A DNA stretch of 64,000 bases from a virus (taxonomy: Duplodnaviria; Caudoviricetes): IMG/VR virus record IMGVR_UViG_3300032782_000002; one strand, given 5' to 3'. Position 1 is the stretch's first letter. Each line of letters opens with the position of its first letter. Positions 31,726 to 47,714 of this stretch are shown here, piece by piece. The notes under the pieces were generated by a model. That model ran no database searches and was not told where the DNA came from. It saw only the letters and a list, made by a program, of their open reading frames with translations. A program made the translations under genes and the position numbers.

Positions 31726-31963
31726 CTGGTACTCTCGGGACATGACGCTCGCCGATCGAATGGCCGCCCTGAAGGCGCCGTCACGCATGGCGGTGGGCGA
31801 GACGCGCTCGGGTGGTGCGGTGGACCCCGAGATCCCCGACGGGATCTACTACACCGCGCGGTTCCGTCGCGGTCAGCCCTTCAAGAAGTACAAGGTTGTC
31901 GTCGTCACCAAGACTGGTTTCGGGGTGACGGATCGCTGGGCGGTCTGGACGAGGATCCAGTAG

Positions 31964-32611
31964 GTGGGCCTCCGTTTCGCCGACCACGCCTTCGTCATCT
32001 GCCTCAAGAGGGCCCCCGAACGCCGCGCGACGTTCGAGCGGTCGGCCGCCGCGGTCGGCTTGCAGGACTGGTCCGTGTTCGACGCGATCGACGGACGGGA
32101 GAACGCTCACCGGATGCCCCCGCGATCCTCAGGAGGGCGTGGTCTCGGTGGTCAGCTCACCCTCGGGGAGCTGGGATGCTTTCTCTCCCACGTGGCTGTC
32201 GTCCGCGAGGCGGTCACGCGCAACCTCGACACGGTGGCCGTCTTCGAGGACGACGTCGTGTTCGCGCGTGAGGCTGCGGAGTCCTGGGCGAAGTTCCGCG
32301 CGACGGTGCCGGCGGGCTGGCGCGTTCTGCACCTCGGGATCGCGGGCCAGCAGACACGCGAACGGCGTCGACCACGCTGGCGCCGTATCGTCTACGACGG
32401 CTCCGCGACCAAGGCAGCCTGGTCGTGGGGATCGTATGCGTACGTCCTCAATCGTGCCGGCATGCAGGAGTACCTCGACCACCCGTTGATCCAGACCATG
32501 GAGTTCCCAGTGGACGGGATCATGCGCGACATGCAGATCAGTGGCGGCTGCTGGCGGCCGACGTGGCCGATTGTGCAGCTGTCGGACGTGCCTTCTACGC
32601 TGAGCGAATGA
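31964..32611 (+). CDS. glycosyltransferase family 25
   Basis: FVICLKRAPERR, FDAIDG, LGELGCFLSH, VFEDD, AYVLN. Confidence 0.9.
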   Translation: MGLRFADHAFVICLKRAPERRATFERSAAAVGLQDWSVFDAIDGRENAHRMPPRSSGGRGLGGQLTLGELGCFLSHVAVVREAVTRNLDTVAVFEDDVVFAREAAESWAKFRATVPAGWRVLHLGIAGQQTRERRRPRWRRIVYDGSATKAAWSWGSYAYVLNRAGMQEYLDHPLIQTMEFPVDGIMRDMQISGGCWRPTWPIVQLSDVPSTLSE

Positions 32612-32874
32612 TCGAACTGCCCCGGGCTCCCTGGAACGGCCGCGTGCCCTATGTGCCCGGCTCCTGGGATCTGCCGCGCTACCAGCCACCGTGGTGCCGC
32701 GATCTCGCCACCATCGATCTCGCAATCATCGTGTGCCCTCGTGGCCACGCCACGCGCATGAGCGCGAGCGTCCATCGCGTCGGTCCCAGCGGCGTCGTGT
32801 CGCCGTCCTACGTGTGCACCGTCACGGGCTGCCGGTGGCACGTGTTTCTGCGTCTGGTGGGATGGCCAGGCTAG
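32608..32874 (+). CDS. small Zn-binding protein
   Basis: CPRGH...VSPSYVC...GCRWHVF. Confidence 0.6.
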   Translation: MIELPRAPWNGRVPYVPGSWDLPRYQPPWCRDLATIDLAIIVCPRGHATRMSASVHRVGPSGVVSPSYVCTVTGCRWHVFLRLVGWPG

Positions 32875-34204
32875 CCAGCACGGCCTCGGCGACAAGCGGC
32901 TCTGTGCGCTCCCACGCCAGGTAGCCGCCTTCATCCACAATGCTGAGACGGTTGTGGATGACCAGCCCGCGCTCGTCGGGCGTGAAGGCGATCTCGCTGT
33001 GGCGGAGACCCTGCACGCGCAGCACGACCTCGCGCAGGCTGTCTTCGGTGTAGATGAACATCGACTTGGGCGGCTTGGGCTCGCGTAGCCCCATGAACAC
33101 GGCGAAGATACCTGTTGCCGGAACGCGCTCGACGATCTCGACGAGCGGGGCGTTGCCGACCAGGCCTGACAACCCCGGCGATAGAATGATCAACGGCGCG
33201 ACGACGACGTTCATGCACCCTCGACTTCGGCCCGTACGGCTACTTCGACGAGAGGCTCTGCGCGCACCCACCCGCTCGCGCGACTGGAATCTCCGGTCAA
33301 CTCCAAGAAGCCCGCCGACTTGGGCACCAGCACGATCGCGCGCTCGCCGTCGAAGGGGACGTCCTCGGTGCCACCCGCGATCTTCACGCGGAGCCAGGTG
33401 TCGCTGTACTCGAACCATGCCTGCGGCGCCCCGAGATCGCAGAGGAAGACGGCGTACAGGTGCCCCGGAGTAGGGCGCCCTTCAACGGCGCGCACACCGT
33501 AGTCGCGATCGAAGGTGTGGCCTGGTACTAGGACAGTCCGTTTCACCCCCGACTCCTCGTCGCATTCGTTGCGCGAGACCAGTACCCCGGGTTGGGCCCC
33601 AGGTTCTGGAGCATCATCTGCAGCCACATCTTGCGCCCCATCTCGTCGTAGGCGTCGGCCGCCGCCATCGCGTCTACGGGCGTGTCGAAGATGCCGAGGC
33701 TCACCAAGCGGTCGCCGAGTACGCGCAGTGCGTTGCTCGGCTGGCGCATCCGCAACGCGTAGCGCCCTGAGGGAGTGATCGCGACGTGGTAGAAGCCCCG
33801 ACCGCGCTGGCTCGGGGCTACGATCTCATTCGGGGCGATGTTCCGCCACGCCAGCATCAGCGCCCCGCTCGGGTGCGTGTGCGCGTACGGCTGGCGGTAT
33901 TGGGCGGCTTCATCTCTGCGAGTCTACCTCAACGTTCGTTCTTCGTGGGCGTACGGCCCGGTGCGTGGAAGTGGATCTTGCACCGCCGGCAGAAGACGCA
34001 CCAGTCGGTCGGTACGATGCCGATGCGGCACCGCATGATCATCATGTTGCCGATCGTCGGGTTGCCGTTGGGCTCCTCGGTCGGCCCGCCACACCGGCGG
34101 CACGGAGGGAGTTGTTTGTTCGGCGTGGGCTGCATCAGAGACCTTTCAGCGTAGCAGACGCTTGCGCTTCAATCAGATCGTGATAGACAGTCGATTCACA
34201 TCCT

Positions 34205-34705
34205 ATGAGCATGACCATCAGCCAGGGCCTGCGTCGCATCTCGAAGCTCAAGGGCCAGCTCTCCGAGCTGCAGAACCGCGCGTCGGCCGCCGTCACGCAC
34301 CTGGCCGACCAGGAGCCCGCGTTCGCGTTCAGCGCCTCGATGGAGCAGATCGCCAAGGTGCGCACCGAGCTGCTCGCCCTGCAGACGGCCGTCGCCATCG
34401 CCAACGCCACGACGACGATCGTGTGGGACGGCAACGGCATGACGCTCGCCCTCGCGCGTCGGACGCTCGACGAGCTGCGCGGCGAGATCGCCTGGCTGCA
34501 GAAGCTGCCCGTCAAGGCGCACGAGAAGAACGTCGTCGCGACGCGCGATCACGACGGCGAGAAGTACATCACCGTGACGCAGACGTTCACGTGCCACCTG
34601 CCCGAGGCCAAGCGCGCCGATCGCGTCCAGGCCCTGCAGGACCGCTTCGACAAGCTCAACGACATCGTCGAGACCACCAACCACAAGACCACCCTCGGTA
34701 GCTGA
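34205..34705 (+). CDS. DIP1984-like coiled-coil protein
   Basis: MTISQGLRRISKLKGQLSEL...LLALQTAVAIANATT...LNDIVETTNHKTTL; family recognised from pattern only. Confidence 0.7.
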   Translation: MSMTISQGLRRISKLKGQLSELQNRASAAVTHLADQEPAFAFSASMEQIAKVRTELLALQTAVAIANATTTIVWDGNGMTLALARRTLDELRGEIAWLQKLPVKAHEKNVVATRDHDGEKYITVTQTFTCHLPEAKRADRVQALQDRFDKLNDIVETTNHKTTLGS

Positions 34706-34711
34706 TCCAGC

Positions 34712-34955
34712 TGCCGGCGGGCGGCGGGAGGAGAGCCGACCCGGGAATACGACGAGCAACGCCGGGCTGCGGTAACCCCGCAAGATCAAAACCGGCACGA
34801 CCCTTCGAAAAGGTCGTCCCCGATACCGGCAAGGACCCTCGTCAGAGGGTCAGAGGTCAGCTGTCACAACGATCAGCCGTTAGCACTCAGCGCCCAGCGC
34901 GAGCACGGATTGTCCGTATGGCTTCCGTGTCGAGCCCCCAGCTGTCGTCGTCCCG
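34712..34955 (+). ncRNA. putative structured ncRNA / 3' element with a 7-nt periodic repeat
   Basis: Hairpins ACGACC..GGTCGT and GACCCTC-GTCA-GAGGGTC; YCAG-like units at 34842, 850, 857, 864, 873, 880, 887, 894, 900. Confidence 0.5.
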
Positions 34956-35133
34956 ACCTCTTACTCGTCGTCCGAACGGGGCGGTGCTTCCCGTCGTCCG
35001 CCGGCAAGCTGGATCAGCCTGGCGAGCGTGCCGCGCCAGGTAGTCGGCGGCCGCCCGGTGGGCGGGGCGTCGTCCTGCTCGCCCCGGATTGCCTGCAGAA
35101 ACCCCTCCACCCAGCTCGTGTCGACCTTGCGCG

Positions 35134-35799
35134 TCACGGCATGATCCTCCGTAGCTTGCCGGCCTCGGGCTCGGGCTCGGCCCAGTACTCGGTCCCCTCG
35201 CGGACGCTCACCAGACGCCCCGTGACGTGCCGGCCGGCGGCGCTGGTCAGCCAGTCCACGAGCGCCACGGCGGCGTCTGCAGAGGCCCCCTGCCAGCCCG
35301 TTAGGCGGGTGGCGACCTGGCCGGGGGCGACGCTGTTCACCCTCGTCCCCGGGTACCTGGCGGCCAGGCACTCGGCCATCTGCACGACCGCCGCCTTCGT
35401 CGCGGTGTAGAGGGCGTCCACGTCAGCCCCCGGGTGCGGTCCCCCGACTCCCCCGCCCGAGAAGAGCACGATGCTCTCCGGCCGGTAGACCAGCGCCTCC
35501 TGGCACAAGCGCCACGTCCCGAGCACGTTGGTCTCGATGACGGCGTTGTCGCGGCCGCTGATGGTGCCGGCCGTGTTGATGACGATGTCCAAGCCCCCGA
35601 GCGCCAGGTGAGCCTTGCGTACGATGTCGTGCGCGTCCTGGGCCACGTGGCCGTGCGCGCCGTACACGCCCAGCCGATCGCAGATGTCCTCGATGCCGTA
35701 GCGGGCGGTGATGAAGACGGCGTCGCCGCGCTGCTTGAAGTGGGTGGTGATGGCCAGCCCGATGCCCCGGGATCCCCCGACGACCAGAACTCGCTTCAC
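35134..35799 (-). CDS. SDR family oxidoreductase
   Basis: VGGSRGIG, INTAG, YTATK (YxxxK), VNSVAPG. Confidence 0.9.
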   Translation of the reverse strand: MKRVLVVGGSRGIGLAITTHFKQRGDAVFITARYGIEDICDRLGVYGAHGHVAQDAHDIVRKAHLALGGLDIVINTAGTISGRDNAVIETNVLGTWRLCQEALVYRPESIVLFSGGGVGGPHPGADVDALYTATKAAVVQMAECLAARYPGTRVNSVAPGQVATRLTGWQGASADAAVALVDWLTSAAGRHVTGRLVSVREGTEYWAEPEPEAGKLRRIMP

Positions 35800-37583
35800 T
35801 TACACACCGCGTGGATGGCGATGTACTTGTTGGTCACCGTGCCACCGAAGTCGCGCAGCGTGCCCGTGTTCCACACGAGTCGCTCGTAGTCATCGCCCCC
35901 GAAGTGCTGCCAGAACATGGCCTCGGTGAGGTTGTGCGGATGTCCCTCGCACACGCCCAGATCGATCCACTCGAAGATGCGCACGGCCCGGCCCATCGCG
36001 ACGACCTTGCGCAAGATGGCGTGCGGGTCGTCGACGTGCTGCAGGCAGTTGTAGATCCAGACCTCGTCGAAGACGCGGTCGTTGGGCATGTCCTCGGCCT
36101 TGACGTTGAGGAACTCAACGTTGGCATCGGCGTAGCGCTTGCGGGTCTCGTCGGACACGGCGAGCGGATCGACACCCCGGCTTCTCCCGTGGACCGACCG
36201 CTGCAGCATCGACACCGGCCCGCAGCCCACGTCGAGGATGGTCTTGGTGCCGTAGTTGGCGTCGTCCGGCATGTCCATCAGCCGCGCGTAGGTCGCCTGC
36301 TTGCGGATCTCCTCGTCCCAGCGCGCGTTCCAGTCCAGGCCCCACCACGAGCGCTCGAAGTGCTGGGCCTTCTCCCACTCGCTCGTCTCGGGCTCGATCG
36401 GCGGCGGCTCGTGCGGCCGCTTCGTGTCGACGCGCATGTGTGGCGCCAAGGTCGGGTAGTCGCGCGTCAGCCAGTCGAGCTGCGTGCGGTTCGGGTTGGG
36501 CATGAAGAAGCCCGTCCGCCGGACGTTCAGGACCTGCTGGAAGTACTCCTCGTACATGAGCGCGACGCGCTCCAGCGAGAAGTTGTCCGCCGCCCACGCA
36601 TGGATGGCCCCGGGATCCAGCTTGTCGATGCCGTGCTTCACGGCCCAGACGAACTGCTCCATGGTGCGGCAGCGGAACCCCGAGATCCCCTGCAGGACCG
36701 TTTCCGGGAAGACTCCCCAATCGGTCGTGATGACGGGTGTGCCCGACAGCATGGCCTCGACATGTACGCCGCAGAACGGCTCGACGTAGAGCGTCGGGGT
36801 GAGCACGGCGCGCGCCTTGGCGAGCAACTTCCGGCGCCCCTCGATCCCCACGGGAGGCAGATACCGCACGTGCTTGCTGTCGCGCAGGAACGGCGCCGGA
36901 TCGCCCTGCCCCACGATCGCGATCTTCATGCCCGCGCGCTTGGCGACGTCGATGGCCAGCGCGACGCCCTTGTCCGTGTTGAGGCGCCCCAGGTAGAGCA
37001 GCTCGTCCTCGCGCTCGTTCATGCGCGGGTTGAAGTCGAACATGGACAGGTCGAACGCGTTGGGGATGACCGCCCAGTAGAACTTGTTGCCGCTGAACAG
37101 GTCCGCCGCGCCCATGTGCATGTGCATCCACGCGTACGACTCGTAGACGCGGTAGTTCGACCAGCTATGGCGGTAGCCGATGCCGCTCTCGATCTGGAAC
37201 TGCGGGACGCCCTCGCAGGCCGTGCGCTGCGTACCGCCCCAGGTCAGGCAGATGATGTCCTCGTTGGGTCGCCCCATGCGCTTCTGGATGGCTGCCTTGG
37301 TGCTTGCCGCCCACGCCGCATGGAACGGCGCGTACTTGCCGCCCGTCTCCAGATCGTAGAACGCCGTCCCCGGCTTGTTGTAGAGGGCCTTCCAGTCCTT
37401 GTGGCTCGCGACGACGACGTTCTCGGTGCAGACCGGATCGGAGCCCTCGTTGCCGTAGTGGAAGACCTCGTGACCGCGATCGGTCATCATCTTGCAGAGG
37501 TTGCGCACCTTCACGGTGAAGGCGCACGTGGTGAACTCGTCGGACGTCTTGGTGTGGGGCAGGCCGAGAATGTGGATGCGCAT
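35796..37583 (-). CDS. GT4-type glycosyltransferase fused to a class I SAM methyltransferase
   Basis: LYLGRL..DKG, EPFCGVHVEAMLSGTPVITTDWG; C-terminal ILDVGCGP...NCLQHVDDP. Confidence 0.9.
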   Translation of the reverse strand: MRIHILGLPHTKTSDEFTTCAFTVKVRNLCKMMTDRGHEVFHYGNEGSDPVCTENVVVASHKDWKALYNKPGTAFYDLETGGKYAPFHAAWAASTKAAIQKRMGRPNEDIICLTWGGTQRTACEGVPQFQIESGIGYRHSWSNYRVYESYAWMHMHMGAADLFSGNKFYWAVIPNAFDLSMFDFNPRMNEREDELLYLGRLNTDKGVALAIDVAKRAGMKIAIVGQGDPAPFLRDSKHVRYLPPVGIEGRRKLLAKARAVLTPTLYVEPFCGVHVEAMLSGTPVITTDWGVFPETVLQGISGFRCRTMEQFVWAVKHGIDKLDPGAIHAWAADNFSLERVALMYEEYFQQVLNVRRTGFFMPNPNRTQLDWLTRDYPTLAPHMRVDTKRPHEPPPIEPETSEWEKAQHFERSWWGLDWNARWDEEIRKQATYARLMDMPDDANYGTKTILDVGCGPVSMLQRSVHGRSRGVDPLAVSDETRKRYADANVEFLNVKAEDMPNDRVFDEVWIYNCLQHVDDPHAILRKVVAMGRAVRIFEWIDLGVCEGHPHNLTEAMFWQHFGGDDYERLVWNTGTLRDFGGTVTNKYIAIHAVCK

Positions 37584-38057
37584 CTCTCACTCGAAGGGTT
37601 CGGGGGATCGATCGTTCAGGTTGGCACCGGCAGGCGGCGGGGGCGGATCGCCGCTCGGCTGCCGCGCGAGCGTCACGGGGCCGACGGGGCCCCGCATGAT
37701 GGCACTGATGCGGTAGCGTGCGCGCAGCGGGAACTGCTTGCTGCGCAGCACCGTCACGAGCGCCGCCTCCAGCTCCTTGGGCGTGACGTCGCGATCGAAG
37801 TCGAACTGCATCACCAGCGACAGGCTGTGCTTGGCGCTCATCTAGCGGCCGAGCTTAGACCAGCGAGCTGAGCGTGTGTAGTTTTGGTGTAGACGCGCGG
37901 TGCTTGACAGGTCGTGTTCGCTCGGTATGGTTGGGGCTGCGGCTAGCACCCGCTGCGTCATCCCTGCCCTGGCGACCGCCCCTACCAACCGCGGGACGGT
38001 CAACGAACGAAGGACGGGTTCAGGACGTAGGTCAACCAACTCACGTGGTGATCCGTC

Positions 38058-38453
38058 ATGTCAGCACAGCTCAAGATCCTTCAGGCCGTTCAGCACGCGG
38101 AGAAGCTCGCGGAGCTTCGCGGGATCCTCAAGTTTCTCAAGGCGGCCAAGCAGACTACGACGTACGTGCCTGTGGCGATGGCGCTCGGCATGTTCAGCGG
38201 CAGCGCGGCGCTCGCCGGGATGCTCGGTGAGATCCAGGTGGAGGACTCCACGATGGGTGCGCCCTTCCTGTCCTCGCTCGTCGTCAGCTCCGTCACCGGC
38301 ATTCCCGGCAAGGGCTACTTCGACCACGCGCGCAAGCTCGGGTGCTCGATCGGCAAGAGCCCGAACGACGAGCTGGAATTCTGGCTGAACCAGCTTCAGA
38401 CGCTCGGCGTGCCCGCGCAGGGCACCATGCTGTCGTGCTCATGCTCGACCTGA
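38058..38453 (+). CDS. hypothetical protein (winged-helix-like)
   Basis: TTTYVPVA...LGEI...PFLSSLVVS..TGIPGKGYF. Confidence 0.6.
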   Translation: MSAQLKILQAVQHAEKLAELRGILKFLKAAKQTTTYVPVAMALGMFSGSAALAGMLGEIQVEDSTMGAPFLSSLVVSSVTGIPGKGYFDHARKLGCSIGKSPNDELEFWLNQLQTLGVPAQGTMLSCSCST

Positions 38454-38783
38454 ACGACGAGCCGCTCGCGCAAGAGGCTCTTCGCGCCGTACAGGAGTGT
38501 AACCTCGCCGCGCTGCTCGATGCGTGCGCCGCGGTGGGGTACACCGAGATCCTCGTCGAGGCGGGGAGTGTCACGGCGTACTGGCCGGGTAAGTGGAACC
38601 ACGTGCGCGGCCCCGAGGATGGCGGGGGATGGCCCATGCTCTGGGTCATCATCCGGGCTACGCATTACGACCGCAGGGCTGGCGGTCACCACCAGCGGGC
38701 GATCGATCCGCGTGCGTTGCCGCTAGGGCGGTTCTCGTGTGTGCGCGACGCGTCGGCTTCTTCTGGTGGGTAGAGCGAGAGTC

Positions 38784-39413
38784 TCAGTCGACCTTGAACC
38801 GGGCGTACTTGTGATCGAGCGTCAGTGTGAACGTCGTGACGCTGTCGACAGGGATCAGATACCGCGATCTGTCACCAGTCACGATGAAGAAGTAGTCGAC
38901 GTCCGCGCTGGAGTACAGGATGCGCCGTCGCCGACCGTTGGCGTTGGCTGGGCTGGTGGCGTTGTAGGCAGCACGATACGCATGTACGGTCCACCGACCG
39001 GACTTACCCTTCTGGTTCGTGGACTTCACCTGCACGCGGATGAGGCCCTGGTCGGACTCGACAACGAGATCGTAGCGCACCGGATCGACTGGGATGCTCG
39101 GAGTGTAACCGCGACTCAGGAACCAGTGGATGGCGTCGCCGATGGCAGCCGATCGCAGCTGGCGCGCATGTGGGTGACGACTGAATACGCTGGGCCGTTC
39201 GTGTGCAGGGACGCGTGGCGGTCGAACAAGTACAGCCGCATCGAGGCTGCGCAAGATGCCCATGCGGCGCACTCGCTTGAACACGGTGACGGGATCCTCG
39301 CAGAGCACTGACGCGATCTTGCGGCAACCGAGGCCGATCTCGTACAAGGGTCGTATCCTTGCGTCCAGCGCCACCATCTCTTTCTTCAGCCTCTTGGGTC
39401 GCCTGGCGTGCAT
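38784..39413 (-). CDS. HTH + PD-(D/E)XK endonuclease (group I intron-associated type)
   Basis: SIPVDPVRYDLVVE...IRVQVKS...YSSADVDYF. Confidence 0.8.
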   Translation of the reverse strand: MHARRPKRLKKEMVALDARIRPLYEIGLGCRKIASVLCEDPVTVFKRVRRMGILRSLDAAVLVRPPRVPAHERPSVFSRHPHARQLRSAAIGDAIHWFLSRGYTPSIPVDPVRYDLVVESDQGLIRVQVKSTNQKGKSGRWTVHAYRAAYNATSPANANGRRRRILYSSADVDYFFIVTGDRSRYLIPVDSVTTFTLTLDHKYARFKVD

Positions 39414-39429
39414 GGCTCTCGCGCCTTTG

Positions 39430-39503
39430 TACCAACGGTCCGATTCGAACGGACACTGTACACGGTCTGAACGTGTTGCCTCTACCAGTTGGGCTACGTT
39501 GGC
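39430..39503 (-). tRNA. tRNA-Leu(CAG), short variable loop
   Basis: ACACG-TTCAGAC-CGTGT; cloverleaf. Confidence 0.85.
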
Positions 39504-39536
39504 GTGTCAGTAGGTGGTGCGGCCACCTACCCGTAG

Positions 39537-39621
39537 TGCGCACGAGAGGAGTCGAACCTCCACAGGGCTTTCGCCCCGCCAGCACCTCAAGCTGGTGTGT
39601 CTGCCATTCCACCACGTGCGC
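39537..39621 (-). tRNA. tRNA-Leu(GAG)
   Basis: CCAGC-TTGAGGT-GCTGG; long variable arm. Confidence 0.9.
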
Positions 39622-39663
39622 GTTGTTTGCAACTTGATACGGATCAGATAAGGTCGGTTCCTG

Positions 39664-40347
39664 TTGGTCTCGTGGAAGTCCTACCGGCCGTCGAGAGTGC
39701 TGACCCCGTACGAGGGCCGTCAGGTTGTACGGGTGCAGGCTGCACTGATGCAGGCCATCGCGCGGGCCGGCGTCAAGATCGAACGTCTTGATAACCCCAG
39801 AGTCCACGCTGTCTACCGGCCGTTGACGAAGACCATCATGCTGACGTCCACGCCGTACCCGCCGTGGGGTCCTCCGCCAGCTGTAGAGCGCCTGTTTACG
39901 CTGGCGCACGAGTTCGGGCACTTCAAGAGTCACGTGCGACACGCCAAAGTGGGGCGTCGAGTCGATCTCGGAAGCGTGCCGCACCAGCTCTTCGAGGAGT
40001 CGCGTGCGTGGAACGAAGCGGGGTACCTGCTGCGCTACTACAGACTGCGGGGCGCGCGCCTGTGGCACTGGTTCGCGCAGGCTGTCGGCATGGCGTTGTG
40101 GCTGAGTGTCAGCGACTACACCGACTACTTCTGGCTGACCGACAAGCTGCGTCGCCAGCGCGTGCGATGTCCGCGATGCCGATCGCGAGCGTTGGTCGTA
40201 CGCAGCTCGTGTGCGGAGCACGCGCTGCTGTGTCGGGCGTGCAAGGCGCACACTCCATCGACGAGATCAGTCGAAAAGTTGGCGGCGCGGATACGTGGCT
40301 CTCGATTCGGCGGTCTTTGCCGATGTCGTCGCGGCTGCACGCCGTAG
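39664..40347 (+). CDS. HExxH metallopeptidase-like protein with C-terminal Zn finger
   Basis: FTLAHEFGH...EESRAW; CPRC...CRAC; antisense to the tRNA array. Confidence 0.65.
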   Translation: MVSWKSYRPSRVLTPYEGRQVVRVQAALMQAIARAGVKIERLDNPRVHAVYRPLTKTIMLTSTPYPPWGPPPAVERLFTLAHEFGHFKSHVRHAKVGRRVDLGSVPHQLFEESRAWNEAGYLLRYYRLRGARLWHWFAQAVGMALWLSVSDYTDYFWLTDKLRRQRVRCPRCRSRALVVRSSCAEHALLCRACKAHTPSTRSVEKLAARIRGSRFGGLCRCRRGCTP

Positions 40348-40379
40348 CTCCGGGCTTGGGAGTAGTTCCGGGCTTGGGA
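40344..40379. repeat. 18-bp tandem duplication of the tRNA-Gln 3' end
   Basis: gtagctccgggcttggga gtagttccgggcttggga. Confidence 0.8.
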
Positions 40380-40442
40380 GTCGAACCCAATTCACTCTGG
40401 CCCCGCTTCAAAGGCGGGAGGACGAACGCGTCGCAACCCGGA
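40366..40442 (-). tRNA. tRNA-Gln(TTG), atypical D and variable regions
   Basis: CCCGC-CTTTGAA-GCGGG. Confidence 0.7.
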
Positions 40443-40443
40443 G

Positions 40444-40517
40444 TGCGCACGCTGGGAGTCGAACCCAGAGACCGGTGGGTTTGGGCCACCGAGGTTTGCC
40501 GGTTACCTCACGTGCGC
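40444..40517 (-). tRNA. tRNA-Leu(CAA), short variable loop, C33
   Basis: GGTGG-CCCAAAC-CCACC. Confidence 0.75.
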
Positions 40518-40523
40518 GATCAG

Positions 40524-40608
40524 CGGAGAGTGGAGGTCTCGCACCCCAGTGGGTTTCCCCACCGCGTCGGTTAGCAACCGGGCCTGGCCCTCGGCCAGTT
40601 CACTCTCC
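40524..40608 (-). tRNA. tRNA-Ser(GCT)
   Basis: Loop TTGCTAA; long variable arm; G73. Confidence 0.85.
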
Positions 40609-40612
40609 GTAG

Positions 40613-40698
40613 CGGAAGGTAGACGAATCGAACGCCCACGGCTCATCACCGCGCCCTCGGGTTCGGACCGAGTCGCCGACCATTCGGCAGTACCTTCC
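40613..40698 (-). tRNA. tRNA-Ser(CGA), C33
   Basis: CTCGG-TCCGAAC-CCGAG. Confidence 0.85.
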
Positions 40699-40704
40699 AA
40701 GTCG

Positions 40705-40790
40705 CGGAAGACGGAGGACTTGCACCCCAGTGGCTCGCGCCACCGCATCGGTTTCCGACCGAGCCCACGCCTACGCGCGGTTCGTCTTCC
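40705..40790 (-). tRNA. tRNA-Ser(GGA), C33
   Basis: Loop TCGGAAA; long variable arm. Confidence 0.8.
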
Positions 40791-40795
40791 AACAG

Positions 40796-40867
40796 TCAGA
40801 GCGGCGGGATTCGAACCCGCTCTACGTGCTCCCCGAGCACGTGTGCAACCGGTAACACTTCGCTCTG
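40796..40867 (-). tRNA. tRNA-Pro(GGG), C33
   Basis: CGTGC-TCGGGGA-GCACG. Confidence 0.85.
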
Positions 40868-40895
40868 ATGGGGCGCTCTTGCGAGCGCCCACCGT

Positions 40896-41453
40896 TCACG
40901 CCGTCTGGGCGACGTCCGTGATGTACGGATGCCACTCGGGCGGTGTCTTGCTCACGTCGATCAGGAACGGTGCATGGTCGACGTTCAGGTGATGCGGCCT
41001 GTGGGGCTGGAAGTGCATCGTGAGCCCTGCCTCGGCCGGCGTGCGCGATCCCTTGCGGGTGTTGCACGGGTAGCAGGTGGTCACGATGTTCTCCCAGACC
41101 GTCTTGCCGCCACGAACGCGAGGCAGCACGTGGTCGTAGTTGAGGTCCTTGGGGTTCTTGCGCTTGCCGCAGTAGCAGCAGCGAAAGCCATCACGGGCGT
41201 AGACGTTGCGTCGGCTGAACTTCACGCCGTCCTTGTGCATCTTGACAGCCTTGCGCAGCCGAACGACGGCCGGCACGTCGAACACCAGCGGGTCACGGCC
41301 CTCGTAGCGGTTGCCCGCCGAACGGACCGTAGCCTGGTAGGTTTCGAGCACGTCGACCTTGTCGTCCACGACCAGCACGATGGCGCCCTGCCACCCCACT
41401 ATCCCGTGCGGGCGCATCCACGGGGACAGTACCAGGGTCCTCAACTCGTTCAC
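40896..41453 (-). CDS. HNH endonuclease
   Basis: FSRRNVYARDGFRCCYCG...DHVLPR.RGGKT.WENIVTTCYPCN.RKG. Confidence 0.92.
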   Translation of the reverse strand: MNELRTLVLSPWMRPHGIVGWQGAIVLVVDDKVDVLETYQATVRSAGNRYEGRDPLVFDVPAVVRLRKAVKMHKDGVKFSRRNVYARDGFRCCYCGKRKNPKDLNYDHVLPRVRGGKTVWENIVTTCYPCNTRKGSRTPAEAGLTMHFQPHRPHHLNVDHAPFLIDVSKTPPEWHPYITDVAQTA

Positions 41454-41456
41454 GGA

Positions 41457-41489
41457 TCACCTTCGCCTTCGTTGCTTGTACCTGCTCAT
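41457..41489 (-). CDS. Arg-rich uORF MSRYKQRRRR upstream of the HNH gene
   Basis: SD GGAG; codons AGG x3, CGA x2; stop 3 nt before the HNH GTG. Confidence 0.5.
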   Translation of the reverse strand: MSRYKQRRRR

Positions 41490-41505
41490 GGTTGTTCTCC
41501 TGTAG

Positions 41506-41577
41506 TGGGCGCACGTGGAATTGCACCACGACCTGCCGCTTATCAGACGGCTGTCCAGACTACTAGACTATACGCCC
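41506..41577 (-). tRNA. tRNA-Ile(GAT)
   Basis: GCCGT-CTGATAA-GCGGC. Confidence 0.85.
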
Positions 41578-41578
41578 G

Positions 41579-41654
41579 TGGTACGGGGCAGCGGGATCGA
41601 ACCGCTCAGGACCGGCTTGTCGAGCCGGCGTCCGCACCAGCGAACATGCCCCGT
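41579..41654 (-). tRNA. tRNA-Val(GAC), C33, CCA encoded
   Basis: CCGGC-TCGACAA-GCCGG. Confidence 0.8.
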
Positions 41655-41676
41655 GTGGATGTGGTAGAAGGAATGG

Positions 41677-42189
41677 ATGTCGATCGTCGTCACGCCGCTG
41701 AGCATCGACAATCCCGACGCGGACATCGGTGCCAGCGTCATCGCGGACGTCGCGGGCGGCGAGACGATGATCTACGAGACGCCGACCGACGACGGCGAGC
41801 TACGCCGCATCCGCGAGATCGGTGTCACTACCGACAGGCCGATCGTTGTCTTCCTGCGCCGCAAGGACGCTCAAGGCATGCAGCTGCGTCGCGTCGGGGT
41901 TGGTCAAGGCGGCACCATCCTCTGGCGCATGGCACCGGAGGAGCCGTGCATCGCGACGAGGGGGAGCCCGCTGCAGCTCTGCGTCGACTCGAAAGAGCAC
42001 ACCGACGTAACCCAGATCACCGCCCACGTGTACTGGGATGCCGTCGCCCGCCCCGCCTTGGTCGAGGAGGCCACCAGGGCGCTGCGTGAGCTGGAAGCGG
42101 GCGCCGTCGTCGAGTGCACCGCCGTGGAGTCGAACCACCATGCCGAGCCGTTCATAGGGCGGCCCCCGGAGCCCGTCCGGGCTAGGTGA
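41677..42189 (+). CDS. hypothetical protein; 3' end runs antisense into a tRNA
   Basis: 170-aa ORF with protein-like composition. Confidence 0.6.
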   Translation: MSIVVTPLSIDNPDADIGASVIADVAGGETMIYETPTDDGELRRIREIGVTTDRPIVVFLRRKDAQGMQLRRVGVGQGGTILWRMAPEEPCIATRGSPLQLCVDSKEHTDVTQITAHVYWDAVARPALVEEATRALRELEAGAVVECTAVESNHHAEPFIGRPPEPVRAR

Positions 42190-42195
42190 CGGTGC
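42115..42195 (-). tRNA. atypical tRNA, anticodon TAT (Ile?), enlarged D region
   Basis: GCACCGT/GCGGTGC acceptor; loop CCTATGA; TTCGACT T-loop. Confidence 0.55.
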
Positions 42196-42199
42196 GTAG

Positions 42200-42267
42200 T
42201 TGGACGCCAGGGAATCGGACCCTGCGCTGCTCCGTGTGAGAGAGCTGCTCTCGCCAGATAGCGTCCA
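42200..42267 (-). tRNA. tRNA-Val(CAC), minimal D arm
   Basis: GCTCT-CTCACAC-GGAGC. Confidence 0.7.
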
Positions 42268-42273
42268 GTGAAG

Positions 42274-42343
42274 TCGCAGCGAAGGGACTCGAACCCTAGA
42301 CACAACGCGTATGAAACGTCGGCCTCACCTTGAGGGCGCTGCG
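42274..42343 (-). tRNA. tRNA-Met(CAT)
   Basis: GACGT-TTCATAC-GCGTT. Confidence 0.75.
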
Positions 42344-42344
42344 G

Positions 42345-42417
42345 TTGCGGGGGCCGTGTTGCACCGGCGTGGCCAGGGTTATGAGCCGTGGTCGGGACTA
42401 AGTCCACCCTCCCCGCG
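42345..42417 (-). tRNA. tRNA-fMet(CAT)-like
   Basis: C1xA72 mismatch; loop CTCATAA. Confidence 0.75.
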
Positions 42418-42418
42418 G

Positions 42419-42490
42419 TGTCCTCGGAAGGAATCGAACCTTCATCGCTGGTTCCGTAGACCAGAGCCTTATCCGTTGGGCTACGAGGAC
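42419..42490 (-). tRNA. tRNA-Arg(ACG)
   Basis: CTGGT-CTACGGA-ACCAG. Confidence 0.9.
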
Positions 42491-42514
42491 AGATGATGCG
42501 TGACGTTGCGCAGT

Positions 42515-42757
42515 TTACTCTGCCGTGCCTTCGCGCACGGCTTGCTTGTCGAGCTGACGGCCTTCCTTCGCGGCGAGGCGCGTCCACAGCTTGCGGTTGC
42601 GGCGCAGGATCTTATCCGTCGAGCCGAACGCCCGCCGCTGGGCCAGGAGCCATCCGTGGTGGTCGCTGCGAGGGCGTACCGTGGGTACCTTGCGGGCCCC
42701 GGCTTTCTCGACGCCAGGGTGATCGCCAGCGGTCGGGTGCTTGTTCGAGCGGGACAT
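42515..42757 (-). CDS. small basic hypothetical protein inside the tRNA array
   Basis: 80-aa ORF filling the gap between tRNAs. Confidence 0.5.
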   Translation of the reverse strand: MSRSNKHPTAGDHPGVEKAGARKVPTVRPRSDHHGWLLAQRRAFGSTDKILRRNRKLWTRLAAKEGRQLDKQAVREGTAE

Positions 42758-42774
42758 GGCGTCGAGCCTACCAG

Positions 42775-42843
42775 TGCCTCCGGACCGAGTCGAACGGTCA
42801 TGACCAAGATTCGTATTCTCGGCACCAGTCCCCTGGCGGAGGC
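42775..42843 (-). tRNA. atypical tRNA, anticodon ACG, short D arm
   Basis: CGAGA-ATACGAA-TCTTG; GACCG-TTCGACT-CGGTC. Confidence 0.6.
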
Positions 42844-42844
42844 G

Positions 42845-42876
42845 TCTCTTCGCCGGGAGTCGAACCCGGACACGGC
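42845..42876 (-). pseudogene. tRNA 3' half, truncated by an insertion
   Basis: CCGGG-TTCGACT-CCCGG-CGAAGAGA with no matching 5' half found. Confidence 0.65.
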
Positions 42877-42981
42877 TTTGCCCGACAAGTCGCGCCTGCC
42901 CGACAAGTCCCCCGGCTGCCCGGTAATTGCGCGTAGCGTTACCGTAGACCGTCCGTGCGGTAGTGGGATACGACGGGGGCC

Positions 42982-43623
42982 GTGCCCATCGATCGCGCTA
43001 GGCCGGAGCCGTCGAAGTTCAACTCCAAGCTCTCTCTGCCATACCAGCTCCGCATCGACGACTTCAAGCTGGCGATGCAGGACATCTACGACTTCTTCTA
43101 CGACGTGAACAACCTGCTCGCGTCGAAGGGTCTCGCCCGCCTGGACGACATGCTGCGTCCCGCGGGCATGTCCGGGCTTCTCTCCGACATGCTGACGGCC
43201 AGCCTCTCCAAGCACTCGCGGACGCTGACGGAGAACCTGCACCACAACGGGCACCCGGACCTCATCGTGCGAGGCAAGTATCCCAAGAACGCCATCGAGT
43301 CCGGGACGGACGGTGTGGAGATCAAGACGACCCGAAAGAAGGGCGGCGCCGTGGACACGCACGGAGCACGGGACCAGTGGATGTGCGCCTTCGTCTACGC
43401 CGTGGACAACAGCACCGAACCCGCGGTGGATCGGCGTCCGATGATGTTCACTGAGGTCTACCTGGGACATGTCACGAAGTCCGACTTCCGAAAAAACCCA
43501 CGCGGGGAGCTGGGGACGCGCACGGCGACGCTCGATAAGGACGGTATCGCTAAGCTCCGCGTGAGCTGGCTTTACCTCGACGAGAAAAAGGAAGAACGAG
43601 ACTTGAAGAAGTGGCGCCGCTGA
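42982..43623 (+). CDS. type II restriction endonuclease-like (PD-(D/E)XK)
   Basis: HNGHPDL...GVEIKTT; convergent with a DNA methyltransferase. Confidence 0.7.
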   Translation: MPIDRARPEPSKFNSKLSLPYQLRIDDFKLAMQDIYDFFYDVNNLLASKGLARLDDMLRPAGMSGLLSDMLTASLSKHSRTLTENLHHNGHPDLIVRGKYPKNAIESGTDGVEIKTTRKKGGAVDTHGARDQWMCAFVYAVDNSTEPAVDRRPMMFTEVYLGHVTKSDFRKNPRGELGTRTATLDKDGIAKLRVSWLYLDEKKEERDLKKWRR

Positions 43624-44521
43624 CCTCGATGCGGGCGAGGCGGGGGATTGCTTCCGCTGCCGTGGCGAAGTACGTCGCGTCCAGTTCGATGCCGATGCTC
43701 TGGTAGCCGATCGACTCGGCAGCGGCGATGGTCGAGCCGCCGCCCATGAATGGGTCGAGTACGATGCCCTCGCCCAACGGCAAGGATGCCCGCACGAGCT
43801 GGCGCATGAGCGCTTGTGGCTTTAGCGACGGATGAGGGGCGATGCTGCGCTCCCAGCGTCGCGTCGGGGCCGATTGGATCACGTCGGAGAACGGCTGGTC
43901 CGCTGAGATGCGCCGCAGCGCCCCAGCCTTCCACTTACGGAGGTTGTCCTGTACGCGCCCCTCGACGGGCTTGCGAAACAGTCCCCACGGTTCCCAGCCC
44001 GACCGCGGCATCACAGTCACGTCGTCGAACTCCTCGTGCGCGTTCTTCGGTCGGTCGCCACCGCGAAGTGTCTGGACGAGACGGATGATCTCGCCACGCT
44101 TCTCGAAACCCGCCTCGATGAACGGTCCCCACGTCACGTGTGAGAGCAGAGGATTCGATGCGATAAAGACGTGGCCGCCTGGGACTAGGACGCGCATGGC
44201 GCCCTCAGCTAGCCGCACGAAGAAGTGGCGCAGGGCCACCTTGTCCGTATCGGTCAGCACCGTGAAGCGCGGGAGCGGGCTGCGCTCGTGGCCGTCGAAC
44301 GACGGGGGGATGCGCCACACGCCACCGCGCCCCTTACGGAGCTTGCCCTTCTCTTCGTCCGTGTACTCCTTCACACCGTAGGGCGGATCGGTCACGATGG
44401 CGTGGATCGACTGCGGAGCCCGCTCAGCCATCCACACGAAGCAGTCCGCGTTGTGGATCGTGTAGCGGCCATCGCTGAGAGAGCGTCCCGTTCGGACGGT
44501 GACGGCAGCTCTCGCCTTCAC
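43550..44521 (-). CDS. site-specific DNA methyltransferase (N4/N6, beta class)
   Basis: IVTDPPY precedes HPSLKP...VLDPFMGGGST...GIELD; start uncertain. Confidence 0.9.
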   Translation of the reverse strand: MKARAAVTVRTGRSLSDGRYTIHNADCFVWMAERAPQSIHAIVTDPPYGVKEYTDEEKGKLRKGRGGVWRIPPSFDGHERSPLPRFTVLTDTDKVALRHFFVRLAEGAMRVLVPGGHVFIASNPLLSHVTWGPFIEAGFEKRGEIIRLVQTLRGGDRPKNAHEEFDDVTVMPRSGWEPWGLFRKPVEGRVQDNLRKWKAGALRRISADQPFSDVIQSAPTRRWERSIAPHPSLKPQALMRQLVRASLPLGEGIVLDPFMGGGSTIAAAESIGYQSIGIELDATYFATAAEAIPRLARIEVSGATSSSLVLPFSRRGKASSRGA

Positions 44522-44675
44522 GACGCGGCCCCGTCGTGCGCCTGGCGCACAGCGCCAGTAACCCGGATCCGCGACCCCACAACCACCGTTCTTTTCGGCG
44601 TCGTATGGCGCGGCCCACAGACCATCCACACCTGAACACACACGGCTTTTCCACCGGGGTTGCGCACAGGTTGTC

Positions 44676-44864
44676 CTACTTCTTCCCGGCTGCTTGGCGC
44701 GGGACATCCCAGTGGACCGACTTGCACTTGGGACAGAGCTTCGGCCGCACGTCCTCTGCCGCCATCCCACGCGGCACGTTCTCCGCCCGGGGCCCTCGCG
44801 CCTGCCATTCGTGCCCGCACCGCTCGCAGCGGTAGCCGGGCACCTTCATCGTGATGCTCGCCAT
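44676..44864 (-). CDS. small zinc-ribbon protein
   Basis: CERCGHEW...PKLCPKCKS..WD; promoter TTGACC-17-TAAGGT just upstream. Confidence 0.7.
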   Translation of the reverse strand: MASITMKVPGYRCERCGHEWQARGPRAENVPRGMAAEDVRPKLCPKCKSVHWDVPRQAAGKK

Positions 44865-44872
44865 ACCCAGGG

Positions 44873-44950
44873 ACCTTACGCACGAATTACTCCACGGTCA
44901 AGGTTTCTTTGCCGGTAAGCCTTGACGAACTTACCTAGCCGGGTAATAAT
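44873..44950. promoter_or_regulatory. back-to-back leaderless promoters
   Basis: minus: TTGACC-17-TAAGGT then ATG 44864; plus: TTGACG-17-AATAAT then ATG 44957. Confidence 0.6.
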
Positions 44951-44956
44951 AGGTGC

Positions 44957-46069
44957 ATGGTTGACGCGCGGCAAGAGAAGGGGCGGTCCCTGGCTAGGGA
45001 CAAGCGGATCCGCAAGGTCGAGGGCGCGACGTGGTACGTGCCCTCCGAGTCCAAGAACGAGGGCGGCTACCTCGTGAACATGCTCGGGCAGACCTGCTCG
45101 TGCCCGGACCACGAGACCCGGATGTGCAAGTGCAAGCACATGTGGGCGGTGGAGTTCGTGCAGACCGTCGAGGTCGCGGCGGACGGCTCCGCGACGATGA
45201 CCGAGACGGTCAAGGTCACGCGGAAGACCTACGCGCAGGACTGGCCGGCCTACAACGCCGCGCAGTGCGCCGAGAAGGAGACTGCCGCCGTCCTGCTCCG
45301 GGGCCTCTGCGACGGCATCCTGAGCCCGCCCCAGGCCGGCCGTGGGCGTCCCCGCACGCCGCTCTCCGATGCCGTGTTCGGGATGGTCACGAAGGTCTAC
45401 ACGACCGTCTCGGGACGGCGCGCCTCGACGGACCTTGAGGCGTGCGCCGAGGCAGGCCACATGCGCAAGGCCCCCAAGTACAACACCCTGTTCGACTACA
45501 TGGAGAAGCCCGAGCTGACGCCGCTGCTCACGCGGCTGGTCGAGGAGAGCGCCGCACCGCTGGCGTGCGTCGAGACGCAGTTCGCGGCCGACTCCACCGG
45601 CTTCTCCACCGTGACCTACCGCCGCTGGTACGACGCCAAGTACGGCCACGAGATGAAGGAGCACGGCTGGATCAAGGCGCACGCGATGGTCGGCACGACC
45701 ACGAACGTCATCACCGCGATCCGCGTGACCGACTCCGACGCGCACGACGGCCCCGAGCTTCCCGGGCTGGTCAAGGCGACCGCTCAGCGGTTCACCATGG
45801 GCGATGTCTCGGCCGACAAGGCGTACCTGTCCCACGCGAACCTTGCTGCCATCGAGGCCGCGAACGCCGTCCCCTACATCCCGTTCAAGTCGAACAGCAA
45901 GGGCGCTGGCCCGGCCGCGTGGCGTCGCATGTGGGGCCTGTTCATGTACCGGCTGGAGCCGCACCCTGCGGCTTCACCTGCACTGCTCCGGATGGAGCAT
46001 GGAGCGGATCGCGGGAATCGGACCCGCCTGGTGCTGCTTGGAAGGCAGCTGCGGCGCCTTGCCGCCTGA
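44957..46069 (+). pseudogene. SWIM zinc finger + DDE transposase, C-terminally truncated at ~45951
   Basis: CSCPD...CKH (SWIM), DSTGF, ADKAY; after WGLFMYR the frame reads through antisense tRNA-Gly and lacks the Y/R-x-E helix with the third catalytic residue. Confidence 0.75.
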
Positions 46070-46074
46070 TCCGC
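46000..46074 (-). tRNA. tRNA-Gly(TCC), CCA encoded
   Basis: GCTGC-CTTCCAA-GCAGC. Confidence 0.85.
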
Positions 46075-46078
46075 ACGG

Positions 46079-46149
46079 AGCCACGTGTTGGATTCGAACC
46101 ACCTCGCTCGCTTACAAAGCAAGTGCATCGCCGCAATGCTTCACGTGGC
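46079..46149 (-). tRNA. tRNA-Thr(TGT)
   Basis: CTTGC-TTTGTAA-GCGAG. Confidence 0.85.
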
Positions 46150-46154
46150 GTCAG

Positions 46155-46226
46155 AGCCGACGAGGGGAGTTGCACCCCAGCCCGTCCCCGTACCAAGGGG
46201 AAGCACCACTCCGGTGCTGCATCGGC
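46155..46226 (-). tRNA. tRNA-Thr(GGT)
   Basis: TCCCC-TTGGTAC-GGGGA. Confidence 0.8.
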
Positions 46227-46297
46227 GTGCCAGGAGGTCAGGACGACCCTTGCGGGTGGCGACCTCCCACTTCCCGAGCCGTGAGGCTCGCGTCCTG

Positions 46298-46368
46298 TGG
46301 ACCTGCGGGGAGTCGCACCCCTGACGACCGCGCGTGCAAAGCGCGTCGGCTGCCTCCAGCACAAGCCC
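46298..46368 (-). tRNA. tRNA-Ala(TGC)
   Basis: G3:U70; loop TTTGCAC. Confidence 0.8.
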
Positions 46369-46374
46369 GAGCAG

Positions 46375-46445
46375 TGGACCGAGCCGGAATCGAACCGGCA
46401 TCTCTGGCTTGCGACGCCAGCATCTTCCCGTTAGACGATCAGCCC
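46375..46445 (-). tRNA. tRNA-Ala(CGC)
   Basis: G3:U70; CTGGC-GTCGCAA-GCCAG. Confidence 0.85.
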
Positions 46446-46446
46446 G

Positions 46447-46517
46447 TGGAGCGCGCGGGAATCGAACCCGCATTCCGAGACTGCCAGCCTCGTGTCCTCC
46501 CGTTGGACGAGCGCCCC
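46447..46517 (-). tRNA. tRNA-Ala(GGC)
   Basis: G3:U70; CGAGG-CTGGCAG-TCTCG. Confidence 0.88.
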
Positions 46518-46749
46518 GTTGTACTATCAGCCCGAAGACGAACCGCGACGACTCTCGGTCACGCTACGCAGCAGACCACGCCGTAGTCCTTCAGCTTCGA
46601 CCGCCTTGAACTCGCGCCGCCACCGCCTGCCGTGCATGCGCGACACCGGATGGTCCGGATCGATTCGAACAGGTGGTATGTCAGCTCCTCGTAGCGACGC
46701 AGGAGCCGCCCGTCAGATAGGTCGCGAGCGGCCATGCGAACGAGTCTAG

Positions 46750-46820
46750 CACCGGGCGAAGGAATCGAACCTTCTCGACGCGGGTTTTGGAGGCCCGCCG
46801 GCGACCATCGCCTGCCCGGC
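46750..46820 (-). tRNA. tRNA-Trp(CCA)
   Basis: Loop CTCCAAA; G73. Confidence 0.8.
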
Positions 46821-46826
46821 ATGAAG

Positions 46827-46898
46827 CGCCTCGTAGGGGACTCGCACCCCTCTCACTCCATAGACAGTGGAGCTGCGACACTCGTCGCATCACGAGGC
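46827..46898 (-). tRNA. tRNA-Asp(GTC)
   Basis: CTCCA-CTGTCTA-TGGAG. Confidence 0.8.
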
Positions 46899-46972
46899 AA
46901 GAGCGGCGACAAGAATGGCGGAGACGAACTTTTCCATGGTGTAGTCCCCACCGCATTCGCCGCGATCATCAG

Positions 46973-47045
46973 CCTCCTCGCCGCGAGTCGAACGCGGAGC
47001 ACGCGGTTTAGGAAACCGCAGCCGGGGATCCGCCCGGACGAGGAG
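46973..47045 (-). tRNA. tRNA-Arg(CCT)
   Basis: GCGGT-TTCCTAA-ACCGC. Confidence 0.8.
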
Positions 47046-47129
47046 AGGCGCAGCCGGCGAGCACGGTCGCATAAGTCGAACACCCCGAAGGGCACCCGGA
47101 TCGTACGCGCGGACATCGCTGCTGCGCGG

Positions 47130-47203
47130 GGTGAGTAGCCGGAGTCGAACCGAGCTTCGGCGGGTTCACAGGCCGCCCTCGTTACCGAACGAGTACACCC
47201 ACC
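47130..47203 (-). tRNA. tRNA-His(GTG)
   Basis: G-1:C73; loop CTGTGAA. Confidence 0.85.
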
Positions 47204-47216
47204 ATAACAGTTGCAG

Positions 47217-47291
47217 TCAGGGAGGCCGGAGTTGCACCGGCACCTTCCGCTTCCAGAGCGGGGATGCTGAGCTGTTGAACACTACTCCCTG
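47217..47291 (-). tRNA. tRNA-Pro(TGG), C33/A37
   Basis: C1:G72, A73; loop TCTGGAA. Confidence 0.75.
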
Positions 47292-47292
47292 G

Positions 47293-47366
47293 TCAGTGCG
47301 GCCGGATTCGAACCGGCACTACTCGCTCCCGAAGCGAGGGTGCTACCGTTGGGACACTACGCACTG
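47293..47366 (-). tRNA. tRNA-Pro(CGG)
   Basis: CTCGC-TTCGGGA-GCGAG. Confidence 0.88.
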
Positions 47367-47483
47367 ATTGGCGGCGCTTTCGCCGCTGTCACCCCTGTTC
47401 GTTCCCTTCGCCCGCCGACCGAGGATGCGTCGCGTTGGCTAGCCCGCGTGCTTCCAGGCACTCTGAGGGGCTCGGGTTCTGCG

Positions 47484-47558
47484 TGCACGGCCGTCGAATC
47501 GAACGACGTTCTTCCGCTCTTCAGGCGGACGCTGAATGACCACACTAGCTCGCCGTGC
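47484..47558 (-). tRNA. tRNA-Phe(GAA)
   Basis: TCCGC-CTGAAGA-GCGGA. Confidence 0.85.
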
Positions 47559-47565
47559 ATTGTCG

Positions 47566-47637
47566 TACACCGTACGGGAGTTGCACCCGCCTCGCGAGCT
47601 TGAAAGGCCCGCCGCCACACTCGCTGCGTCACGGTGC
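47566..47637 (-). tRNA. tRNA-Glu(TTC)
   Basis: CGGGC-CTTTCAA-GCTCG. Confidence 0.8.
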
Positions 47638-47641
47638 GTAG

Positions 47642-47714
47642 CGCCCCCACTGGGAATCGAACCCAGCTCTCCTGATTGAGGGTCAGGTGACTTGAGCCTC
47701 TGGTCGATAGGGGC
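47642..47714 (-). tRNA. tRNA-Glu(CTC), C33
   Basis: CCTGA-CCCTCAA-TCAGG. Confidence 0.85.

Follow-up and report, generated by a model that had tools for sequence, protein, structure and literature searches.

Does a gene that stands by itself on the plus strand of a viral contig belong together with the 7-nt periodic tract behind its stop codon, and if so, as what? The locus lies in a 64,000-nt stretch of DNA, all of which was analysed (here, the window). The database record of the encoded DUF6847-like protein lists a contig of 220,885 bases; the window contains 32 tRNA genes (positions 30823–48515, all on the minus strand, flanking the plus-strand module) as well as genes identified as encoding a phage-type primase and an RNA ligase. 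A large phage is therefore the probable source; neither a capsid gene nor a terminase gene was identified in the window. ORF 34205–34705 was confirmed as the lone plus-strand gene described in an initial annotation of this DNA, as it is the sole called gene on that strand amid minus-strand neighbours on both sides. Elsewhere, the window includes glycosylation genes at 35134–37583 (minus strand) and 31964–32611 (plus strand), which encode an SDR/epimerase, a GT4 glycosyltransferase fused to a methyltransferase, and a family 25 glycosyltransferase, and it also includes the RNA ligase frame at 7–1362 (minus strand), which also matches HNH endonuclease profiles over residues ~120–190. The gene, the RNA behind it and their parts were delineated as follows, with rail denoting the tract of 7-nt units (heptads).

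34205–34705, plus strand: DUF6847/DIP1984-like gene, 166 aa (PF20935, 29.3 bits; pLDDT 94; 3KDQ, Z 15.1)
34713–35005, plus strand: structured noncoding RNA, 293 nt, starting 8 nt past the stop codon (z −5.0)
34713–34731, plus strand: outer closing stem, 5′ arm; pairs with 34987–35005 (covariation)
34735–34756, plus strand: interrupted continuation of the closing stem, 5′ arm; pairs with 34964–34985 (centroid fold)
34763–34766, plus strand: inner helix, 5′ arm CGGG; pairs with CCCG at 34952–34955
34768–34782, plus strand: hairpin 1 (four of five pairs with two-sided changes; centroid fold)
34797–34817, plus strand: hairpin 2 (centroid fold; varies among homologs)
34822–34833, plus strand: two hexamers, consensus G-A-Y-R-N-Y, conserved, immediately 5′ of the rail
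34834–34851, plus strand: hairpin 3, immediately 5′ of the rail (centroid fold, alignment)
34850–34944, plus strand: heptad rail (two heptads, a 9-nt unit at 34864–34872, four units, an inserted hairpin, two units)
34901–34931, plus strand: inserted hairpin between units, absent in nine of nine close homologs
34987–35005, plus strand: outer closing stem, 3′ arm (centroid fold, alignment)
34961–35137, minus strand: convergent called ORF, 58 aa, whose tail overlaps the 3′ arm of the RNA; outside the module

The 166-aa protein was modelled by AlphaFold2 (pLDDT 94) as long helical hairpins and a beta-hairpin. Its earlier assignment to a DIP1984-like family stands in part: the protein passed the cut-off of PF20935 (Pfam DUF6847; 29.3 bits against 27, residues 14–163) and matched PDB 3KDQ (DIP1984) over the whole chain (Z 15.1, rmsd 2.8, 150 residues aligned, Foldseek TM 0.78; the second-ranked fold match had Z 9.2), but scored below the curated cut-off of NF038048 (NCBIfam DIP1984_fam; 32.1 bits against 70). 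Identity to 3KDQ was 15%, and this structure was recovered by fold search only, a PDB sequence search finding nothing. A profile search yielded 529 representatives at 50% identity. Comparing profiles pairwise against canonical DIP1984 and T5.085 gave results that were weak on their own, and tblastn matches to mycobacteriophage Ro genes (E 0.08–0.3, 27% cover) were taken as chance. PADLOC gave no match for the 166-aa query; no ToxN/MazF-like endoribonuclease family appeared among the Pfam, PADLOC and fold matches listed, the whole chain matching 3KDQ, and neither a HutP nor a TRAP fold appeared among the Pfam and fold matches listed. The label 'septicolysin', if taken to mean a cholesterol-dependent cytolysin, does not apply, as those are ~500-aa beta-rich four-domain proteins with a tryptophan-rich undecapeptide, and the protein studied here has 166 aa, a mostly helical model and no such Pfam match.

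A four-copy model of the protein presented a self-association score of 0.72 (best control, 0.02) in a benchmark where 20 of 30 solved pairs and one of 23 single chains came up to the mark; contact agreement between runs was at least 88%, with pLDDT of at least 86. Just one neighbour per chain was placed confidently, so the protein is predicted to form a homodimer, although the model may reflect memory of 3KDQ; the model lends no confident support to the ring or filament that the initial annotation had envisaged. The residues conserved among 162 homologs (T4, Q7, R10, K16, N152, E156, N159 and H160) all lie outside the modelled interface, from which we infer that these eight may form an RNA-binding or higher-order surface. 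The family's median pI is neutral (6.8), which counts against an RNA particle.

A folded RNA element behind the gene, as originally proposed, was confirmed, but it extends to 35005 rather than to 34955: the fold of 34714–35004 presented a z of −5.0, with none of 200 shuffles as good, whereas the stretch ending at 34960 (the interval read at first) presented a z of −1.5, no better than shuffles. The element is single copy in the window. The view that ~240 nt here carry no credible ORF needed correction, as the 58-aa minus-strand ORF extends into the 3′ arm of the outer stem; this arm is nonetheless kept as a stem in homologs. The closing helix had been placed at ~34717/~34944, which proved wrong, the actual partners being 34713–34731 and 34987–35005. 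Among 10 close homologs, this outer stem has 21 pairs, 10 of them with two-sided changes, and 98.5% of alignment cells paired (42–60% in slid controls), figures that come from related sequences and represent no formal probability. Covariation in this alignment was 0.395, compared to 0.196 when shuffled. Counterparts of the interrupted continuation (34735–34756) were similar but poorly alignable in homologs, while the inner CGGG/CCCG helix was conserved and 100% paired in the alignment, without two-sided changes. Three of the four hairpins first listed are present in the centroid fold (34797–34802/34812–34817, 34834–34840/34845–34851 and 34904–34909/34924–34929), and the fourth, CCCGG/CCGGG, is absent from the full-element fold; hairpin 1 carries a GCAA tetraloop in most close homologs.

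Across loci, GNRA/UUCG tetraloops were found 67 times on the plus strand and five times on the minus strand, and G-U pairs (163) exceeded A-C pairs (51), which indicates that the element acts as a plus-strand RNA rather than as a DNA feature. The strand was called from these two measures only, because folding energy failed to separate plus from minus, and the ungapped stem count, which 44 CDS controls passed, was no better. Homolog RNAs presented a median fold z of −4.5, as compared to −1.1 for CDS controls. Mutual information analysis of the hexamers, the units and the 3′ motif revealed no base-pair covariation between them, nor any that would mark a pseudoknot in this clade; no pairing partner was found for the G-A-Y-R-N-Y hexamers, and a CGACA/UGUCG helix was no more than compatible in the close clade. 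At the gathering threshold, no Rfam 15 family matched this element, its counterparts at 10 homolog loci or five canonical loci; low scorers (E 1.2 and 8) were regarded as chance. Read backwards, the hexamer core GAY (34822–34833 and homologs) gives YAG, the core found in many units. In one clade (L040, L047, L050 and L064), a palindromic GAUUCGAAUC-like motif is located 3′ of the rail and may represent either a T-loop or a site of dimerisation.

The nine units recognized at the outset are indeed spaced 8, 7, 7, 9, 7, 7, 7 and 6 nt (AG at 34844, 34852, 34859, 34875, 34882, 34889, 34896 and 34902, with an AC variant at 34866), and two further units (AG at 34933 and 34940) are located 3′ of the inserted hairpin at 34901–34931; looping out this hairpin gives six units, as in close homologs. 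The proposed YCAG-like consensus was replaced by U-N-A-G-C-N-N, present in ~ten units per RNA, in which AG was fixed by the way units were picked and U (65%) and C (66%) were not so fixed. We discarded the idea of an all-frame stop cassette, since AG is preceded by a free base, most commonly C, which gives no stop. The tract contained five lag-7 AG pairs, compared to 1.18 in shuffles (p = 0.005), and was the highest-scoring lag-7 AG tract on both strands of the window. The runner-up, a weaker run from 22006 on the plus strand inside a long minus-strand ORF, scored 4 (four pairs per 100 nt).

Approximately 100 loci were fetched from viral, metagenome and genome collections, of which 79 were distinct and had enough 3′ sequence. 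The association survived a check of these 3′ regions for 7-nt periodicity and structure, both of which are kept: a significant lag-7 AG tract was detected in 74 of the 79 loci (30–65% identity) and was visible by eye in the remaining five. Pooled counts reached 616 at lag 7 versus ~150 at other lags, with peaks at lags 7, 14, 21 and 28; coding controls peaked at multiples of 3, and CDS and upstream controls were flat at lag 7. The RNA is located on the same strand and downstream of the stop codon in all loci (median distance, 17 nt). Automatic RNA boundaries failed in some loci, and some layout anchors were set by hand; the layout is constant, with a closing stem, one or two hairpins and the two hexamers at the 5′ side, followed by two or three heptads, one unit of 8–10 nt, and then further heptads. 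In 44 of 53 curated loci, the long unit is followed by six or seven more; the number of units is constrained. The U-AG-C core is kept from 32 to 68% GC, with the free positions drifting with genome GC, and neighbouring units are identical in only 2% of cases, which speaks against an origin of the rail by slippage. Hairpins inserted between units leave unit count and register intact; taken together with the kept core, the rarely identical neighbours and the lack of covariation, this points to a rail that is a single-stranded, base-read track of fixed length.

This module is carried by phages, small MAGs and plasmids, and no third gene is conserved with it (largest neighbour cluster, 14 of 79 loci). 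A gene for RNase P RNA directly follows the heptad RNA in 14 loci, all of one clade, and tRNA genes were found within 2–3 kb in only seven of 43 long loci; the link to stable RNAs is therefore weak. The loci with bacterial RNase P RNA (L012:2806–3135 and 13 others) include IMG/VR viral contigs, and roughly ten loci of this clade are followed by an RNA ligase gene. With the RNA standing behind the gene in 79 of 79 testable relatives, the protein and the RNA are probably the two components of a so far undescribed ribonucleoprotein.

In bacteria, heptamer repeats are over-represented without explanation (PMC4692102). A scan of viral contigs for five TNAGC units yielded at least 119 such stretches, and among the 80 loci that were examined, a DUF6847 gene was never located upstream. 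The heptamer tract alone is thus non-diagnostic of the module, and a sequence-only model scored some gene-less arrays as high as distant true members. The presence of the same core without the gene also means that another protein could read the units, which argues against a particle. Nevertheless, the two kinds of tract differ: neighbouring units are identical in 2% of cases in gene-linked rails and in 45% in gene-less arrays, an inverted partner array was found for none of 63 gene-linked rails but for 34 of 107 gene-less arrays, and the strict hexamer motif was present in 43 of 79 gene-linked loci and in two of 107 gene-less arrays. The gene-less arrays (L122–L201; e.g., L151, L192 and L195) often occur as inverted pairs, several per contig. 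Essentially no TNAGC arrays were found elsewhere in the window or in five MAGs that carry the module.

Canonical members of the DIP1984/DUF6847 family (PF20935, NF038048, 3KDQ), with which our protein shares the whole-chain fold and the Pfam assignment, allow a comparison with a clade that is, by contrast, divergent and found largely in phages and small genomes. Among 11 plasmid and genome loci of canonical DIP1984, a closed stem follows the stop codon in several but not all (z260 from −5.2 to +0.8), and a pooled AC-type signal of 34 at lag 7, compared to 5–28 at other lags, was obtained from these loci, some of which are related. Their RNAs thus have another unit and, in some loci, a k-turn-like GAG/UGA motif that is missing here; the group with this motif and a closing stem (L105, L111 and L112) includes an Acinetobacter plasmid gene labelled septicolysin and has no Rfam match. 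Actinobacterial DIP1984 3′ regions (L114, L119–L121) contain a tRNA T-loop-like GGUUCGACUCCC motif. A pattern scan found no canonical DIP1984 in viral contigs. T5.085 (PHROG 1491), a longer protein of 212 aa, is a distant relative, as 16 of 23 members match phrog_1491 (best E 3.6e-6), and its 3′ region presents a closed stem (z −4.5) and AAAG-type units spaced 7–8 nt. This RNA region of phage T5 (43143–43504; L115:7144–7505) is unannotated and offers a tractable experimental model; we saw no support for the 'tail fiber' annotation of T5.085. In this small sample, the change of unit sequence with protein clade (AC-type with canonical DIP1984, AAAG-type with T5.085) favours cognate recognition. 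No RNA partner of DIP1984, DUF6847, PF20935, 3KDQ or T5.085 was found in the literature searched, most subscription papers lying outside the search.

Several known systems share parts of this arrangement. In type III toxin-antitoxin systems, a repeat array is located upstream of the toxin gene, with a terminator between them, and the antitoxin consists of tandem repeats of ~34–57 nt, each forming a pseudoknot. Like ToxIN, CptIN and TenpIN, the module combines a small gene with an adjacent repeat-bearing RNA on mobile elements, but its RNA is downstream, its 7-nt units are located within one fold and its protein has no endoribonuclease match; the type III option raised in the initial annotation fails on gene order and unit size. 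Intergenic heptamer repeats, exemplified by the cyanobacterial STRR, have the 7-nt period in common with the rail, and one common class has a TNAGC core. These repeats are near-perfect, often inverted and of variable length, while gene-linked rails are degenerate, one-directional, fixed in number and located inside a conserved fold. A further parallel is found in regulatory leaders, where TRAP binds NAG triplets at fixed spacing in the trp leader. HutP reads UAG at a 7-nt period, and the hut RNA follows the HutP stop codon (PMC2425495); the B. subtilis hut terminator thus shares NAG triplets, period and position behind its own stop codon with our element, suggesting that the rail may work like a HutP site in recognition. 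HutP and TRAP are oligomeric readers, as is presumed here. However, the hut terminator has three units per site as compared to ~ten units in a loop, and the module has no conserved regulated operon and no known ligand.

Our best inference is a putative cognate protein-RNA pair with approximately one unit per protein subunit. In the reading that we prefer, and which we consider slightly better than evenly supported, the pair is a two-part RNP in which protein dimers line up on the single-stranded rail, with NAG read every 7 nt as by HutP, and the RNA sets the size of the particle. Gene and RNA would be co-transcribed; no sigma-70 promoter was found upstream of gene 34205–34705 (one was found in 11 of 78 homologs). 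The long outer stem, supported by covariation, would close and protect a compact RNA, inside which the ~ten U-N-A-G-C-N-N units would be displayed as a single-stranded rail. The modelled DUF6847 dimers would then align on this rail, one AG(C) core per binding site, through basic and polar residues that are conserved in the N- and C-terminal helices and lie outside the modelled interface. The RNA would thus act as a ruler as well as a scaffold, fixing the size of the particle. The likeliest purpose would be to keep the protein in a stable particle; in the weakest step, which we regard as doubtful, the state of this particle would signal that stable RNAs of the phage and its host are being damaged or attacked by nucleases. 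A similarly tentative extension is that DUF6847/DIP1984 proteins and their RNAs constitute a widespread, so far undescribed class of RNPs, with a protein oligomer of fixed size templated by the single-stranded heptad rail, clade-matched units and a switch triggered by RNA damage or nucleases in the conflict of phage and host.

A simpler function would be autoregulation, with the RNA staying on the mRNA as a 3′ element through which the protein sets the stability or translation of its own message, and nothing more. The constant position of the RNA just past the stop codon on the same strand, and the failure to find a separate promoter or terminator between gene and RNA, are consistent with this; however, a multi-helix RNA of 200–300 nt with a fixed unit count, hexamers and tetraloops exceeds the needs of a binding site, and the function of the protein would be left unexplained, so we consider autoregulation unlikely. 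It is also decidedly unlikely that the RNA restrains an effector that, when free, would inhibit growth (e.g., at the membrane) until the RNA is destroyed: strict co-occurrence of gene and RNA as a two-part module on phages, small MAGs and plasmids would suit such a role, but the RNA is downstream, the 7-nt units in a loop do not resemble processed repeats of ~36 nt, and the protein matches 3KDQ over its whole chain, with no nuclease among the folds listed and no PADLOC match.

The identical TNAGC core at a 7-nt period in gene-less arrays, together with the unexplained over-representation of bacterial heptamer repeats (PMC4692102), could suggest that the rail is a decoy or mimic of host arrays, binding a host factor that would normally read them, or that the protein acts on array-bearing host transcripts. 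This is very unlikely, given that arrays are essentially missing from the window outside the module and from the five module-bearing MAGs, which weakens the idea of a mimic for those MAGs, that inverted partners are confined to gene-less arrays, and that the motif follows the protein clade. Antitermination of the HutP kind, in which the protein would bind NAG sites and open the stem for read-through into downstream genes or stable RNAs, could draw on the same period and position behind the stop codon as in hut and on the 14 loci in which RNase P RNA directly follows. Yet an attenuator was rejected on its layout, as the next gene is convergent here and in two of four homologs with gene calls and only 12 of 48 loci have a U-rich tail after the stem; in addition, the units are located in a loop rather than in the stem and downstream genes are not conserved, making this mechanism highly improbable. 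Finally, heptamer arrays do arise in DNA elsewhere, but a DNA-level element (protein-binding iterons, a cruciform or a slippage repeat) is barely credible in view of strand-specific GNRA/UUCG loops and G-U pairs, a register that survives inserted hairpins, and degenerate units.

The two-part RNP, the reading that we prefer, offers an entry point, open to testing, to a family whose crystal structure dates from 2009 but which has no assigned function. Its genes are carried by common plasmids of Acinetobacter and Enterococcus, where the label 'septicolysin' fits them poorly. The module also adds an uncatalogued structured RNA from phages and small-genome bacteria. That the rail and the intergenic heptamer repeats, themselves unexplained, have a core in common suggests a general mode of reading in 7-nt steps, which is worth testing. 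If true, the use of an RNA to count protein subunits, with 7 nt allotted to each, would represent a new assembly principle outside viral nucleocapsids.
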